DNA of 64,000 nucleotides from Octopus vulgaris (taxonomy: Eukaryota): the NCBI GenBank assembly GCA_951406725.2, contig OX597840.1:15438001-15502000 (forward strand), in the 5' to 3' direction. The notes below the pieces were generated by a model. That model worked only from the letters and a program-made list of their open reading frames with translations. It was not told the origin of the DNA and made no database searches. Shown here one piece after another: positions 1,503 to 62,758 of this stretch. Numbering within the stretch: the first letter of the stretch is position 1; the number at the start of each line of letters is the position of its first letter. The translations under genes were made by a program, and so were the position numbers.

Positions 1503-1987
1503 ATACAACTTATAAATAACGGCAAACGAAAAAAATTTTCTAATGCCAAATATGCCGAAAATTGGACATATTATCCATTACCATATAATTTATCACAATA
1601 CGCACACTACTCGAAAAAAGCCAACAAAAATTTCTAAAAAAATCCATTATTACCATATCAGACCGATTTCAGGGTTAGTTTGTAAGTATCTCATTTATTT
1701 CTTTACCACATGTATCACTGACAAAGGGAGGGTTCTTACGAACTAACCCTGAAATTGGTCCAATATGGTAATTATAGAATTTTTTAGAAATTTCTGTCGG
1801 CTTTTTTTCGAGTAGCGTGCATATTGTGATAAATTATATGGTAATGGACAATATGTCCAATTTTCAGCTTATTTGGCATTAGAAATTTTTTTTCGTTTGC
1901 CCTTATTTATAAGTTGTTTATAATTTTAACCTTTAAAGGTATTTTTTAATATGCTGGCCATTGATAAAAATTTTATCGTACATTAAA
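1503..1987 (+). mobile_element. Fold-back insert in (TA)n with hammerhead motif and 3' tail (PLE pLTR-like)
   Basis: Inverted arms ~1503-1692 / ~1728-1922, unpaired tail 1923-1987, (TA)n on both sides. Confidence 0.8.
1713..1770 (+). ncRNA. Type I hammerhead ribozyme motif (core G8A)
   Basis: TATCA-CTGACAA-AGGG(AG GGTTC TTAC GAACT AA)CCCT-GAAA-TTGG T CCAA-TA-TGGTA. All three stems pair. Confidence 0.75.
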
Positions 1988-2711
1988 TATATATATATAT
2001 ATATATTTATATGTATATTACATTAAATGTGTGTTTCTTTGTGTGTGGTATTGGGGTGTATTGCATGTGTACATGAATATTTAAATATTTATTTTTGGTT
2101 CACTTGAACCATTGAGAAATATTTGGAACAGACTGTAGATGCAGCAATCAATAATAGTTCCTTATAATACATCTTATAAAAAACCTTGATGACAGAAACA
2201 AGTGGACAGAATCACCTACTGGTATTGAGCCATATGTTCATCATGCAACTGAATGGCCATGAATGGCTATTACATCAAAGCAACCTGACAACTCTCAACT
2301 GTTGGAATCAGAAATGTCATTTGATTCTTTCGGGTGATTTTGACCACTTTATTCCATTATCAAAGGGGATGCTTTAGCTTTACACAAAGAACGATTATCT
2401 ACAACTCCTTTCATATCGTAGCAGCATATAAAAGGAATCTTTGATATATGTGTGTATGTATATGTGTGTGTTCATGTGTGTATGTGTGTAATATTATTAT
2501 ATGTAATATATAACAGACCAAGATATCTGTGACGTGTTGTACTGAAGAAGAGCCGTCCACCACAGCAGAATTGATACCAGTGCTGGTCCCACATAAAAAA
2601 CACCCAGTACTCTCTGTGGGGTGGTTAGTATTAGGAAGGGCATCCAGCCAAATCAGACAATGGAGCCAGTTGCAGCCCCTGCGCTTACCATCTCCAGTCA
2701 AGCCATCCACC

Positions 2712-3160
2712 CTGGCTGTGTGGTAAGTAGCTTGCTTATGAACCACATGGTTCCGGGTTCAGTCCCACTGCATGGCACCTTGGGTAAGTGTCTTCTACTA
2801 TAGCCTCAGGCCAACCAAAGCCTTGTGAGTGGATTTGGTAGACGGAAACTGAAAGAAGCCCGTCGTATATAGGTATATATATATATATATATATATATAT
2901 ATATATATATATATATATGTATGTATGTATGTGTGTGTGTGTGTGTTGTATTTGTATGTCTGTGTCTGTCCCCCCCACATCGCTTGACAACCGATGCTGG
3001 TGTACTTACGTCCCCACAACTCAGCGGTTCGGCAAAAGAGACCAATAGAATAAGTACTAGGCTTACAAAGAATAAGTCCTGGGGTCGATTTGCTCGACTA
3101 AAGGCAGTGCTCCAGCATGGCCACGGTCAAATGACTGAAACAAGTGAAAAAGTAAAGAGT
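2712..3160 (+). mobile_element. tRNA-derived SINE family A copy with internal (TA)n(TG)n
   Basis: A-box TGGCTGTGTGG, B-box GGTTCAGTCCC, CCTTGGG(C/T)AAGTG motif, 3' end GTGCTCCAGCATGGCC..GTCAAATGACTGAAAC. About 20 copies occur in the window. Confidence 0.85.
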
Positions 3161-3213
3161 ATATATATATATATATATATATATATATATATATATATAT
3201 ATATATATATACA

Positions 3214-3565
3214 TATAATCAAAAATAAGCAACAAGAATGACTCCGGTGATTTGGTACAATTGTTTCGTACTACAACATTTTATTAAAAGCTGTAAGTAT
3301 TACAGCAGATTTAAGATGCTGAGTACTCTTCAGCCAATTTATATAGGTTTTCCAATAATATAAAAGCTTTAAGGACGAATACATATGGCTATTACTACTT
3401 GATTTGAAAGCTGTACAAAACAATTGTACCAAATCACCAGAGTCATTCTTGTTGCTTATTTTGATTATAATCACCCTGCAAATTTTTATGGGTAACACCA
3501 TACAAAATTCTGGTGCATCTAAATTAAATACCATATTCATTTGCATCTAAATTGTTGCTGATCTT
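3214..3565. mobile_element. Fold-back insert in (TA)n with hammerhead motif and tail (PLE pLTR-like)
   Basis: Arms 3214-3271 / 3413-3469, tail 3470-3565, TA-rich flanks. Confidence 0.8.
3252..3337 (-). ncRNA. Type I hammerhead ribozyme with intact core
   Basis: Minus strand: TTGG-CTGAAGA-GTACT(large structured loop)AGTAC-GAAA-CAATTG-TA-CCAA. Stem III is the palindrome ACAATTGT. Confidence 0.85.
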
Positions 3566-3696
3566 ATATATACATATAATAAAATAAATGCTTTACACCT
3601 GGTAGCTTACTGGTAAGGCACGGTCACTTTCAGAGTGATCATTAGGTAAATAACAAATGAAAGACAGAAGATGGAATATACTAGAATATATTATTA

Positions 3697-3797
3697 ATCA
3701 CAATTGTTTTGACACATCTAGTATTGACTCCACTTGTGGGTCACTCAACAATTGGTTCAGGAGTATCTGGTGGTACAGACGTATCTCGTCGGGTGAT
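3697..3797 (-). ncRNA. Hammerhead-like motif (U4C, G12A) in a PLE-like 3' remnant spanning ~3570-3870
   Basis: Minus strand: ATCAC-CCGACGA-GATACGTCT...AGATGTGTC-AAAA-CAA-TT-GTGAT. The 9-bp stem II (with G-U pairs) and the 5-bp stem I both pair. Confidence 0.65.
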
Positions 3798-60075: not shown

Positions 60076-61326
60076 ATATGAATAGATAAATGTGTATACA
60101 CACACTTAAGTGTGTGTATGTGTGTGTTAAGTTTGAAAACACACTTAAGATCTTGTGTCCTATACTTGCTCCATTGATCTTTCATCAGCACACATGCACA
60201 CACACGCACACACAATAAACGAGAGATGTGAAGAGGGAAGTTCAGGTAAATGGTTTGGGGAAAGAAATGAGAGGGAAAAGAGAAGAAAAAGATTGCGCAT
60301 TTCTATGTAAATGGCTGATACGAATGTCTTGTGTTCATTCTCATCACTAATGACGGAGTATTATCTCTTGAGCTTAATTAACTAGTAATTAATTAGTGGT
60401 GTAGCCATTATCTTCTTGGATAGATCCTCCAATATAATTAAATTTCTTTAGCTCCTCAATAAGCCAGGCCCGTCTACTTGGCTGCTTGTCTTGCAAGAAA
60501 TAGCAGCCAGGTGTTCATTAAATTATACACTGTGCTGTCGTACTCTTTTACGTGTTTCAGTCATTGGATTGCGGCCATGCTGGGGCACCACTTTGAAGAG
60601 TTTAGTAAGACAGATTGAATTGGTCCCGTTACTTTCTCCTTTTCAGTATGGTTCTAATTTTATCTGTTTCTTTTACCAAACTGCTAAGTTATGTGGATAT
60701 AAACAGACTATCACTGGTTGTCAGGCAGTGAGAGGATACAAACACAATGCAATGGCAAAAACATATGATGGGCTTCCTCACAGTTTCCATCTAACAAGTT
60801 CATTCACAAGGCTTTGGTTAGCCCTGAGTTTTAGTAGAAGACACATGATCAAGTTATATACTTGTAACTTAGTGGTTCATCAAAAGAGACTGATAGAATA
60901 AGTACCAGACTTTAGAATAAAAGCCCTGCAGTTGATTTTTTGATTAAACTCTTAAAGACAGTGCCCCAGCATGGCCACGGTCCAAGTTTTACTGAACCAA
61001 GTTTTACTGGGAGATAAAAAGTATTAATCCAGATTAAAGAATTGGCAGAACTTCTATAAGGTTAAGACAAGAAGTCTTGTAGGATCTATCCCAGTTCTTT
61101 GACTATGGTAACACCAGTGCCAACTTCTGACAACCCCAGTCATGGTATCACACAAACGACACCCATTCCGGTGGCATGTGAAAGCACATATTACAGTCAG
61201 AGTGGTTGGCATTAGGAAAGGCATCCAGCTATAGAAACCATGCCAAATCAGACTGGAGTATGGTGCAGCCTTCCAGCTTGCCATCCCTGGTCAAACCATC
61301 CAATCCATGCCAGTATGGACAACAGA

Positions 61327-61560
61327 GGGCGGCAAACTGGCAGAATTGTTAGCACGCTGGGCAAAATGCTTAGCAGGATTTTGCCTGCCATTAGGTTCTG
61401 AGTTCAAATTCTGCCGAGGTTGACCTTGCCTTTCATCCTTTCAGGGTCGATTAAATAAGTACCAGTTACACACTGGGATCGATGTAATCGACTTAATCTC
61501 TTTGTCTGTCCTTGTTTGTCCCCTCTTTGTTTAGCCCCCTGTGGGCAATGAAGAAATAAG
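61327..61560 (+). mobile_element. SINE family B copy nested in an RTE 3' end
   Basis: Flanked by duplicated gtatggacaacaga (TSD-like). Confidence 0.8.
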
Positions 61561-62121
61561 TATGGACAACAGATAGTGAATGATGATGATGATGTTGATA
61601 AATATTTGCATCAGATAAAAGAGAGAGGCTTGTAAGTATGGGCATCTTCCAGTCTTCTGTAAAAGATGTTGCTCAGGCTATCACACATGTGACACTCTGT
61701 TGGTAACAACAACGAGGGTTCCAGTTGATCTGATCAATGGAACAGCCTGCTCGTGAAATTAACGTGCAAGTGGCTGAGCATTCCACTGACATGTGTACCC
61801 TTAATGTAGTTTTCGGGGGAGATTCAGCATGATACAGTGTATGAAAGGCTGGCTCTTTGAAATACAGGGACAAGAGAACCAGGAAGAAAAAGTGAGAGAA
61901 AGTTGTGGTGAAAGATTACAGCAGGGTTCCACCACCCCCTGCCAGAGCCTTTTGGTGTTTTCACTCAATAAACACTCACAATGCCTGGTCTGGGAATCGA
62001 AACTGCAATCTTATGACCACAAGTCCACTGCCCTAACCACTGGGCCATTGCGCCTCCACTACACACATGTACAGCTACACAGTCATGCTAAGCTAACAGA
62101 AGCCCTCTATACAAGCATGAG

Positions 62122-62342
62122 TATGAGGGGAGTGCTGAAAAGTATCTTGCTTTAAGGGTATCATGAATGGCCTGGTTGGAGGCCCAACCTTCTGAGTCCT
62201 TGCACAGGGTTTTCAAAATCTGAAGGACCACTGCAATAAGTATGTGAATCTAAGAAGGTAATATGTTGAATATAATCATAATTAACTGATGCTGCTGTAT
62301 TTTCTTTTATCCAAAGTCAGGAAGTTTATTAGCACCCTATCA
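62122..62342 (+). mobile_element. mariner-derived MITE (further copies 63105-63320 and 63458-63600)
   Basis: Termini GAGGGG.TGCTGAAAAGT.. / ..AGGAACTTTT.AGCACCC. The internal sequence resembles the mariner C-terminus (CNKYVNLRREYVE). Confidence 0.7.
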
Positions 62343-62391
62343 AATATATGTGTGTGTGTATATATATATATATATATATATATATATATAT

Positions 62392-62758
62392 ATTACGTTA
62401 TATAATTAGGGTTCAGTAAAATAATTTACTTTACCACACACCGAACTTTTAGAAATAGCAGCCAAAAAATTCTTTTAGCTATTTCTTCTACTATAAGAAA
62501 AGTCTCCCAAACAATGTATACTCAAAAATTATTTTTGAGTATACATTGTCTGGGAGACTTTTCTTATAGTAGAAGAAATAGCTAAACTTTTTGGCTGCTA
62601 TTTCTAAAAGTTCGGTGTGTGGTAAAGTAAATTATTTTACTGAACCCTAATTATATAACGTAATGTTTTAAATATACCGTAAATGGTCTTTTTACATACT
62701 GAACACTACTTGGTAAAATTAATTAATAATTAATTAATTTTACCCTTTTATTATTGAC
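62392..62758 (+). mobile_element. Near-perfect fold-back insert in (TA)n with structured tail
   Basis: Arms 62392-62529 / 62531-62664. Tail 62665-62758 contains a 16-bp hairpin at 62712-62744. Confidence 0.85.

Follow-up and report, generated by a model that had tools for sequence, protein, structure and literature searches.

Why should inserts whose bodies cannot be aligned with one another end in similar tails? The 64,000-nt stretch of Octopus vulgaris DNA analyzed here (the window) raises this question because a first-pass annotation had described, near the 3' ends of four inserts, a conserved and covarying hairpin shared by otherwise unrelated fold-back families, and had read it as a possible cis signal. 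The four tail strings are present on the plus strand at 1951–1977, 4472–4509, and 62696–62744, and on the minus strand at 37787–37832. We label the inserts E1 to E4, a further candidate E5, and the first and final hairpins of a tail H1 and H2. The inserts measure 100–480 nt, and the tail, 65–100 nt long, stands on one side only. We favor a model in which the tail is probably a docking element for the reverse transcriptase (RT)-endonuclease of a Penelope-like retrotransposon (PLE), lying between two priming sites. The shared module runs H1, T-run, linker, H2, and its parts are as follows.

1929 to 1940, plus strand: H1 of E1.
1951 to 1962, plus strand: conserved linker of E1, one base short of the E3 linker.
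1963 to 1977, plus strand: H2 of E1, 6 bp here, longer and variable in other copies of the family.
4433 to 4459, plus strand: an extra hairpin of E2, the second hairpin of the first-pass annotation, no homologue of H1.
4456 to 4465, plus strand: the H1 homologue of E2, CCTTATGAGG.
4472 to 4509, plus strand: linker (4472–4484) and H2 (4485–4509) of E2, with the junction, not in (TA)n, 12 nt on.
37775 to 37872, minus strand: E3, a tail-only copy within a SINE-like repeat, in its (TA)n tract.
62676 to 62687, plus strand: H1 of E4.
62696 to 62744, plus strand: linker of E4, 3 nt longer, and H2 (62712–62744, 15 perfect bp), with (TA)n 14 nt on.

E3 is made up of a short AT palindrome, the linker (37832–37820), and H2 (37819–37788, minus strand); H1 is missing. 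A second hairpin had been claimed for at least three of the four tails, and this holds for H1 in E1, E2, and E4. The hairpin named for E2 was the wrong one, since the homologue of ACCTTTAAAGGT in that insert is CCTTATGAGG at 4456–4465 and not the hairpin at 4433–4459.

The motif common to the four tails is not due to chance. When each tail in turn was left out of a PWM that included H1, the held-out tail was the top untrained match in the window in every round, with 32.2 bits for E1, 27.4 for E2, 33.0 for E3, and 23.3 for E4, against at most 13.7 bits for the best other match; all four tails had been in view when the segment boundaries were set. Across 40 shuffled windows the highest maximum was 19.7–22.3 bits, depending on the model, and each held-out tail beat all 40. 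Without H1, E4 scored 17.2 bits, a value exceeded by 1 of 10 shuffled windows. The first-pass annotation had proposed a covariance model (CM) as a check against random hits in AT-rich DNA; at E < 1 in the window, such a model recovered the four tails it was trained on, two of their palindromes on the reverse strand, and nothing else. Two further hammerhead-type fold-backs in the window lack the motif, which is therefore a feature of one lineage, not general to fold-back inserts.

Matches to the motif pattern outside the window (one in viral contigs, one in prokaryote genomes, and six in metagenomes) were treated as chance. All eight lacked both (TA)n and a fold-back at the matching site, their sole similarity to the window was one 25-nt match (E = 0.001), and their CM scores were at most 24.8 bits despite selection for the motif. 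Our literature search found no report of such a motif common to unalignable families, and the supplements of PMC8967140 and PMC13282606 held no matching sequence.

The annotation had also called the fold-back families unrelated. The inserts and the candidate other than E3 have these bodies.

1506 to 1686, minus strand: inverted arm of E1, tail-less, 5'-truncated within hammerhead loop II, with (TA)n adjoining on the left.
1735 to 1922, plus strand: sense arm of E1 up to its tail-less end, with TATA-like microhomology to the target at 1916–1922.
4254 to 4429, unstranded: fold-back of E2 with its loop, 45-nt arms matched at 41 of 45 positions.
53095 to 53345, plus strand: E5, a candidate distant member absent from the first-pass annotation, a fold-back with a one-sided two-hairpin tail.
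62393 to 62664, unstranded: fold-back of E4, arms 62393–62523 and 62534–62664, with (TA)n on the left.

The arms of E1 align with 165 matches, 16 mismatches, and one gap column, and those of E4 with 125 matches, 2 mismatches, and 7 gap columns. The bodies of E1, E2, E4, and E5 could not be aligned in any of six pairs on both strands; for the best pair, which lay on opposite strands, 4 of 300 shuffles did as well. Within the window, no body had a match other than itself and its inverted arm. The description as unrelated thus stands for E1, E2, and E4. It fails for E3, which is little more than a tail and not an independent fold-back family; AATAATTAT..TTCCC is common to E3 and E2, and E3 may be derived from the E2 family. 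E5 aligned locally with the E4 tail better than any of 300 shuffles, but its membership is unsupported, with no CM match at E values up to 5 and at most 3.9 bits by PWM. Membership of a fold-back at 46873, assessed by CM and PWM, was likewise unsupported.

The position of the tail relative to the insertion junction, suggested in the first-pass annotation as a further check, is regular. H2 closes 9 nt from the 3' junction in E1, 12 nt in E2, 11 nt in E3, and 14 nt in E4, and this junction adjoins (TA)n in E1, E3, and E4 and other repeat DNA in E2. On the left, E1 and E4 lie in (TA)n and E2 in a TA/CA-rich tract, and the tail-less ends of E1, E2, and E4 fall on TATA/AAT microhomology to the target. 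The inserts thus have the (TA)n microsatellite insertion bias that is an endonuclease-positive (EN+) PLE trait of Hydra, Naiad, and Neptune.

A palindrome followed by a terminal stem-loop is also the arrangement of certain rolling-circle 3' ends. Helentron-associated HINE/DINE-1 elements (Thomas 2014, PMC4067079) have a 12–15 bp palindromic subTIR 38–60 bp from the 3' end and a palindrome 8–35 bp from it, with subTIRs common to divergent families, and canonical Helitrons, which insert at AT, carry a hairpin some 11 bp from their end (PMC4067079). If the tails were Helentron/HINE or Helitron ends, H1 would correspond to the palindromic subTIR of the 3' end and H2 to the stem-loop at the terminus, which Rep/Helicase recognizes on single-stranded DNA. 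The likeness extends to the sharing across families and to the 3' distances, which fit such ends: E1 and E2 fall within the HINE ranges, and H1 of E4 lies further out. Against this reading, a second copy of H1 (up to 2 mismatches) occurred within 600 nt upstream in none of three inserts tested, so that there is no 5' subTIR, and CTRR followed H2 in none of the four. The inserts are flanked by (TA)n or by different repeat DNA rather than by the TT or T-run insertion sites of Helentrons and HINEs, and long inverted arms with a hammerhead are PLE traits. We consider a rolling-circle origin highly improbable.

The claim of a compensatory, covarying stem is not supported. When the base of H2 is anchored on its closing pair, pair 2 alone changes, being A-T in three of the four tails and G-C in one, and shuffling four letters reproduces this pattern 1 time in 4. 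The evidence therefore comes down to a single base-pair swap, present in just one of the four tails, in a stem that also varies within the E1 family. A tool-based pair count gave a covariation of 0.100, and 191 of 500 shuffles were as high, on an alignment (n = 4) in which E1 and E4 are out of register; the variable H2 stem is misplaced by MAFFT, and this spoils the count. Taken alone, the tails of E1 and E2 fold no better than shuffles (z = 1.14 and -1.79), and the strength of tail folding is about equal on the sense and antisense strands.

These observations bear on an explanation in which the inserts are PLE ends and the hairpins are no selected structure. Recent common descent, or a swapping of tails, would then account for their likeness, and AT-rich H2 palindromes, made and re-perfected by snap-back copying or slippage, would give the appearance of compensatory change. 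The single compensatory event agrees with this, as do the linkers of E1, E2, and E3, which are a few transitions apart, and the possible origin of E3 from the E2 family. Within the E1 family, Logan contigs show that H2 is heterogeneous, with loose ends at 1974 (agreement 0.54–0.56) and, in one contig, a local duplication at 1968–1978. Moreover, a hairpin of at least 6 bp opens at 5.5% of window positions, so that a hairpin alone is weak evidence. However, the single-stranded linker and the sequence of H1 are kept beside bodies that do not align, and the spacing from H2 to the end stays within 9–14 nt in all four inserts. We regard unselected hairpins as unlikely.

Linkage to hammerhead ribozymes (HHRs), also raised by the first-pass annotation, is found in E1 as a predicted motif and in none of E2–E4 by our descriptor.

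1703 to 1771, plus strand: minimal type-I hammerhead-like motif of E1, core 1718–1724, stem II 1725–1750.

GAAA follows at 1751–1754, and the predicted cut falls after 1760; the motif is on the sense strand, with the tail about 160 nt further downstream. The hammerhead core is canonical with the letter that predominates at 1723 in Logan contigs from four runs (depth 10201/10766, 90635/90963, 8555/8620, and 6038/6052). Two stem II changes that pair, 1733 T>C and 1742 A>G, have an equal depth of 1109.5 each in run X8 (4 contigs), but do not keep pace with each other in X1 (1427 vs 939), X3 (8859 vs 1414), or X7 (968 vs 149). The descriptor matched twice in the window (1718 and 23483), both times in fold-backs, against an average of 0.27 in 30 shuffles, a chance rate that is optimistic for a descriptor designed after E1 was known. 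Among the Rfam matches listed for the window (150 of 187, E ≤ 1), all were under the gathering score and none was a hammerhead; they were mainly miRNA-like and microsatellite-driven.

E1 represents an abundant family in which a tail-less end at 1922 recurs. Loose ends behind this position consist of (TA)n in 34 Logan contigs of run X1, 34 of X3, and 26 of X7, and among the E1 variants listed, none lies beyond 1924. Variable 5' truncation, with 3'-biased copies, is a trait of EN+ PLEs. In E1, summed contig depth, a weak hint that is not a copy number, rises toward the 3' end, 9- to 81-fold from 1749–1759 to 1925–1935, and the tail is 1.4–2.4 times deeper than the neighboring arm. No RNA record carrying E1 was listed, and no statement on expression follows.

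The layout of these inserts is already known. As described by Arkhipova 2013 (PMC3846280) and Craig 2021 (PMC8557442), EN+ PLE insertions carry an inverted 5'-truncated copy, an extension at one end, a microsatellite target, and a hammerhead in the pLTR. Here, the inverted 5'-truncated copy stands at the 5' end of E1, E2, and E4, while E3 has only its short AT palindrome; the one-sided tail extension is found in the same three inserts, and a minimal type-I hammerhead in the pLTR, on the sense strand, is predicted in E1 only (1 of 4). The inserts differ from those EN+ PLEs in tail length, as the usual tail in these sources is 30–40 bp, and in the motif itself, since the text available from both describes no sequence-and-structure motif common to unalignable families. 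The tail is a variant, specific to one lineage, of a structure already known, and a modest addition to it.

A close parallel is PAc, the Poseidon element of Anolis carolinensis (Frangieh 2024, PMC11167929). In PAc, RT begins at two internal sites, one of which lies within a stem-loop, and the sequence enclosed by the two sites forms the tail; as here, two ends bracket a tail downstream of the hammerhead, the target is AT-rich, and a stem-loop lies by a start site. The PAc tail, however, lies inside the ORF start, and its stem-loop and start site are AC-rich, whereas the tail described here looks non-coding and AT-rich and has two hairpins. Among other PLE clades, Hydra and Naiad share the (TA)n preference, and Hydra has a 3' hammerhead, while Naiads are without canonical HHRs (Craig 2021 supplement). 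The Hydra clade is marked by its RT phylogeny and by an EN without CCHH. By eye, the published 3' ends of Hydra-1_Obim, Naiad_Obim, and Naiad_Ovul are unlike the tail, and six Hydra consensus 3' ends show no resemblance to it. Four 10-mers from the linker matched the Craig 2021 supplement only twice, both times apparently within coding sequence. EN+ PLEs carry an ORF for a telomerase-like RT and a GIY-YIG endonuclease. A Pfam search of 150 of the 213 non-repetitive window peptides gave no PLE domain above cut-off, only LINE RT and endonuclease, and no PLE ORF was linked to the tails.

The module might instead be another PLE cis signal, acting in RNA 3'-end formation, in stability, or as a pLTR promoter element. 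A T-rich run comes after the hairpin in both H1 and H2, and promoter motifs have been proposed in pLTRs (PMC3846280). Set against this, the module occupies the interval between two recurrent insertion ends, and the insertion ends of PAc are RT starts internal to the RNA and not RNA ends (PMC11167929). We give this explanation little credence.

We therefore return to the docking element. The inserts would be 3'-end remnants from one lineage of EN+, (TA)n-targeting PLEs, whose RT-endonuclease would bind the module folded in RNA, reading the linker and stem bases by sequence while the upper H2 stem is free to vary. The protein would nick both strands of (TA)n, and reverse transcription would begin at two AU-rich sites bracketing the module, one 9–14 nt downstream of H2, yielding the tailed arm, and the other 7–27 nt upstream of H1, yielding the inverted, tail-less arm; joining of the two truncated cDNAs would then produce the fold-back. 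Under this proposal all families depend on the module, which explains its conservation beside a 3' UTR that otherwise drifts. Speaking for it are the PLE layout, the E1 hammerhead, the recurrent end at 1922, the microhomology of the tail-less ends, the held-out tails beside unalignable bodies, and the PAc parallel. Counting against it are the lack of a PLE ORF among the window peptides searched, the hammerhead in one insert of four, the lone swap in H2, the stem II pair that fails to change in step in three runs, the heterogeneity of H2 in the E1 family, the unremarkable folds of the E1 and E2 tails, the missing H1 of E3, the tail length, the AC-rich PAc start site, and the unlike Hydra and Naiad ends. 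The earlier suggestion of a cis signal for RT recognition or priming, shorn of its covariation part, would fit both this geometry and the biochemistry published for PAc (PMC11167929).

SINEs capture LINE tails, and by analogy the tail could be a portable cassette of about 70 nt, enough for RT loading and twin priming, taken over by several unrelated non-coding passenger families from a single autonomous PLE. We regard this as a tentative possibility. Chlamys MRC1 is likewise a short non-coding unit whose 3' end is common to an autonomous PLE, and non-LTR retrozymes are likewise HHR-bearing; in contrast to such non-autonomous PLE passengers, the inserts form no tandem arrays, and no tandem head-to-tail HHR-bearing repeats, the non-LTR retrozyme trait, were found in the window.

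Craig 2021 (PMC8557442) names the formation of the inverted repeat and tail as unexplained, and Frangieh 2024 (PMC11167929) maps start sites for one element and defines no motif. If the tails reflect shared ancestry only, the motif would still be a useful marker by which to classify an abundant repeat lineage, but nothing beyond that. As a motif lying between both insertion ends and kept across unalignable families, it offers specific bases and stems to mutate. Were the tail a portable cassette, PLE recognition would have a defined signal that can be transplanted, and the origin of the inverted arm with its accompanying tail would be explained.

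The four tail strings of the first-pass annotation are all present, at 1951 (E1, plus strand), 4472 (E2, plus), 37832 (E3, minus) and 62696 (E4, plus). E1, E2 and E4 have one layout: between the two flanks, an inverted arm is separated by a loop from its partner arm, and a tail follows on that side only. The tail consists of a first hairpin (H1), a T-rich run, a single-stranded linker (ATRYTG..RCYACTT) and a last hairpin (H2) that starts with GRTAA and ends with TTAYC; the junction is 9, 12 and 14 nt beyond H2 in E1, E2 and E4 and 11 nt beyond it in E3. The junction lies on (TA)n in E1, E3 and E4 and on other repeat DNA in E2. 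A second, preceding hairpin had also been described; H1 is indeed found in E1, E2 and E4, but the E2 hairpin named (4433-4459) is an extra one, the homologue of H1 being 4456-4465. E3 has the linker and H2 and lacks H1. It is a tail-only copy within a SINE-like repeat, in the (TA)n tract, and has a stretch in common with the extra hairpin of E2. There are therefore three bodies, not the four otherwise unrelated families proposed; the bodies are indeed unalignable (six pairs, both strands; at best, 4 of 300 shuffles were as good).

This insert architecture is already known. Inverted truncated copies that have a tail on one side, insert at microsatellites and bear a hammerhead in the terminal repeat (pLTR) are described for Penelope-like elements (PLEs) (PMC8557442; PMC3846280; PMC4209133). 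For O. vulgaris, PMC13282606 counts 190 PLE families, which together account for 6.83% of the assembly. By layout, the inserts are very probably members of this group. The window is repeat-rich animal DNA, with SINE-like repeats containing internal microsatellites; the repeats have an octopus-like look.

Other features of the window (CM, covariance model of the tails)
5365-5413, partial second copy of the fold-back 45956-46096
11485-13722, minus strand, LINE remnant, endonuclease and RT in several frames (Pfam Exo_endo_phos, RVT_1)
23235-23577, fold-back of a different PLE-like family, hammerhead core at 23483, (ATG)n/(AAT)n loop, ~34-nt left tail
45956-46096, further fold-back
46347-46497, further fold-back
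46873-47130, fold-back with a one-sided right tail that ends in a hairpin next to (TA)n, non-significant CM match (E=4.2)
53095-53345, E5, candidate distant member, fold-back with two-hairpin tail, E4-like at the close of H2
57686-59333, plus strand, LINE remnant, RT split across two frames (Pfam RVT_1)
62815-63084, young fold-back, left tail 62760-62814, arms at 97.8%, opening in hammerhead-like stem II plus GAAA

The joint tail signal is clear although pairwise tail alignments are modest, with 6 (E1-E2), 3 (E1-E3), 3 (E2-E3), 19 (E2-E4), 41 (E1-E4) and 142 (E3-E4) of 300 shuffles as good. When each tail was held out of a weight matrix (PWM) and both strands were scanned, it was the top untrained match every time (32.2, 27.4, 33.0 and 23.3 bits for E1-E4; next best at most 13.7 bits), a somewhat optimistic result, since segment borders were chosen with all four tails in view. 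Each held-out tail exceeded the maximum of 40 of 40 shuffled windows when the model included H1; without H1, E4 was outscored by 1 of 10. Apart from the four tails, the covariance model matched only two H2 palindromes, read on their reverse strands, at E<1 in the window, so neither search matched AT-rich DNA at random. Passive homology, with palindromes generated mechanically, accounts well for H2 and leaves the kept linker and spacing unexplained; we consider it unlikely.

Stem length does vary, as first described, even inside one family. E1-family contigs from four public runs depart from the E1 copy at 1974 into heterogeneous continuations (44, 49, 34 and 31 contigs, with an agreement of 0.54-0.56). 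In run X3, 21 contigs extend at 1978 to a later closing TTTTATCC. Covariation of H2 is unproven. Only pair 2 is swapped, in a single sequence of the four (chance rate 1 in 4), and a tool-based pair count on a misregistered alignment gave 0.100, reached by 191 of 500 shuffles. Given these results and the within-family stem variation, the covariation proposed for the hairpin is unsupported but not contradicted.

A hammerhead descriptor, composed after E1 had been inspected, matched twice in the window, both times inside fold-backs (1718 in E1, and 23483), against a mean of 0.27 in 30 shuffles. Stems II and I of the E1 hammerhead reach -9.2 and -6.1 kcal/mol. Four public runs with four organism labels placed 4383, 3353, 2322 and 1316 contigs on 1683-1990, and the majority letter at 1723 gives the canonical core in all four (95-99.8% of depth). 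In X8 both members of one stem II pair are changed, with matching depth; in the other three runs they do not change in step. Among the contigs listed, runs X1, X3 and X7 have at least 34, 34 and 26 in which (TA)n follows the loose end at 1922, which makes the tail-less end a terminus that recurs. Toward the 3' end the summed depth climbs, and it is 1.4-2.4 times deeper over the tail than over the arm next to it; this hints weakly at truncation or at tails common to other bodies.

The motif is absent from fold-backs 23235-23577 and 62815-63084, which have whole or partial hammerheads and ordinary ~35-nt tails and are matched by neither CM nor PWM. The one-sided tail of the latter, which adjoins E4 directly in the same (TA)n tract, repeats terminal TCTTCTAATATATA and lacks the linker motif. 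Two families are truncated within the ribozyme: the E1 inverted arm ends in loop II (1686/1735), and both arms of the 62815 element open at hammerhead stem II (about 62945). E5 has the same outline, and its membership is unsupported, both models having missed it. The loop of fold-back 3214-3570, which has a one-sided tail, contains a linker-like ACTACTTGAT outside tail context that may be chance. TCATCTC is present in two other fold-back tails (62803 and 23222, minus) and at the E5 arm end (53226, plus); with 15 occurrences in the window, it is weak as evidence. A weak CM match at 2381-2447 (minus, E=1.2) is wrongly oriented relative to the nearby microsatellite, and its plus strand ends TTTGATATAT, loosely resembling, by eye, published Naiad ends.

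Collections of viral, prokaryote and metagenome sequence gave eight pattern matches, which look like chance; as these collections are not meant for animal repeats, the matches bear little on the range of the motif. Two metagenome contigs (L005:2716-2769 and L007:4001-4054; 28% GC) match the linker pattern and have an interrupted stem of 11 bp, with neither (TA)n nor fold-back, and were likewise put down to chance. Within the open-access literature, we found no report of a tail motif common to unalignable PLE-type families.

The ends of the inserts bear on what the tail might do. In E1, E2 and E4 the tail-less ends are 7, 27 and 12 nt upstream of H1, at sites of TATA/AAT microhomology to the target; the full ends follow H2 by 9-14 nt. 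For a PLE of Anolis, PMC11167929 describes two internal RT start sites, one in a stem-loop, with the genomic tail as the stretch between them; the conserved module here occupies the corresponding interval. The PLE enzyme may thus dock on the module, both nicked (TA)n strands would prime at its two borders, and two truncated cDNAs would be joined into a fold-back. With the geometry observed and binding, priming and folding strand inferred, we favour this account with some reserve. RNA end formation, or some other cis function in PLEs, is a good deal less probable. A Helentron or Helitron end, whose hairpin distances as given in PMC4067079 fit, is very improbable, as a 5' subTIR was found in none of three inserts examined and CTRR in none of four, and the target sequence does not match.

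In Chlamydomonas, non-autonomous PLE passengers with common 3' ends are already known (PMC8557442 supplement), and retrozymes are argued to descend from PLEs (10.64898/2026.07.22.740005). Judged by eye in the PMC8557442 supplement, Octopus Hydra and Naiad ends differ from the tail described here, and Hydra-2_Amil, Hydra-2_Ajap and Hydra-1_Crog have a different common hairpin-like 3' motif (GCTC...GAGCACT or similar). We regard the tail motif as a real feature of one lineage, with a role as an RT signal plausible, and the Hydra consensus ends suggest that tail motifs specific to each clade may be more general.
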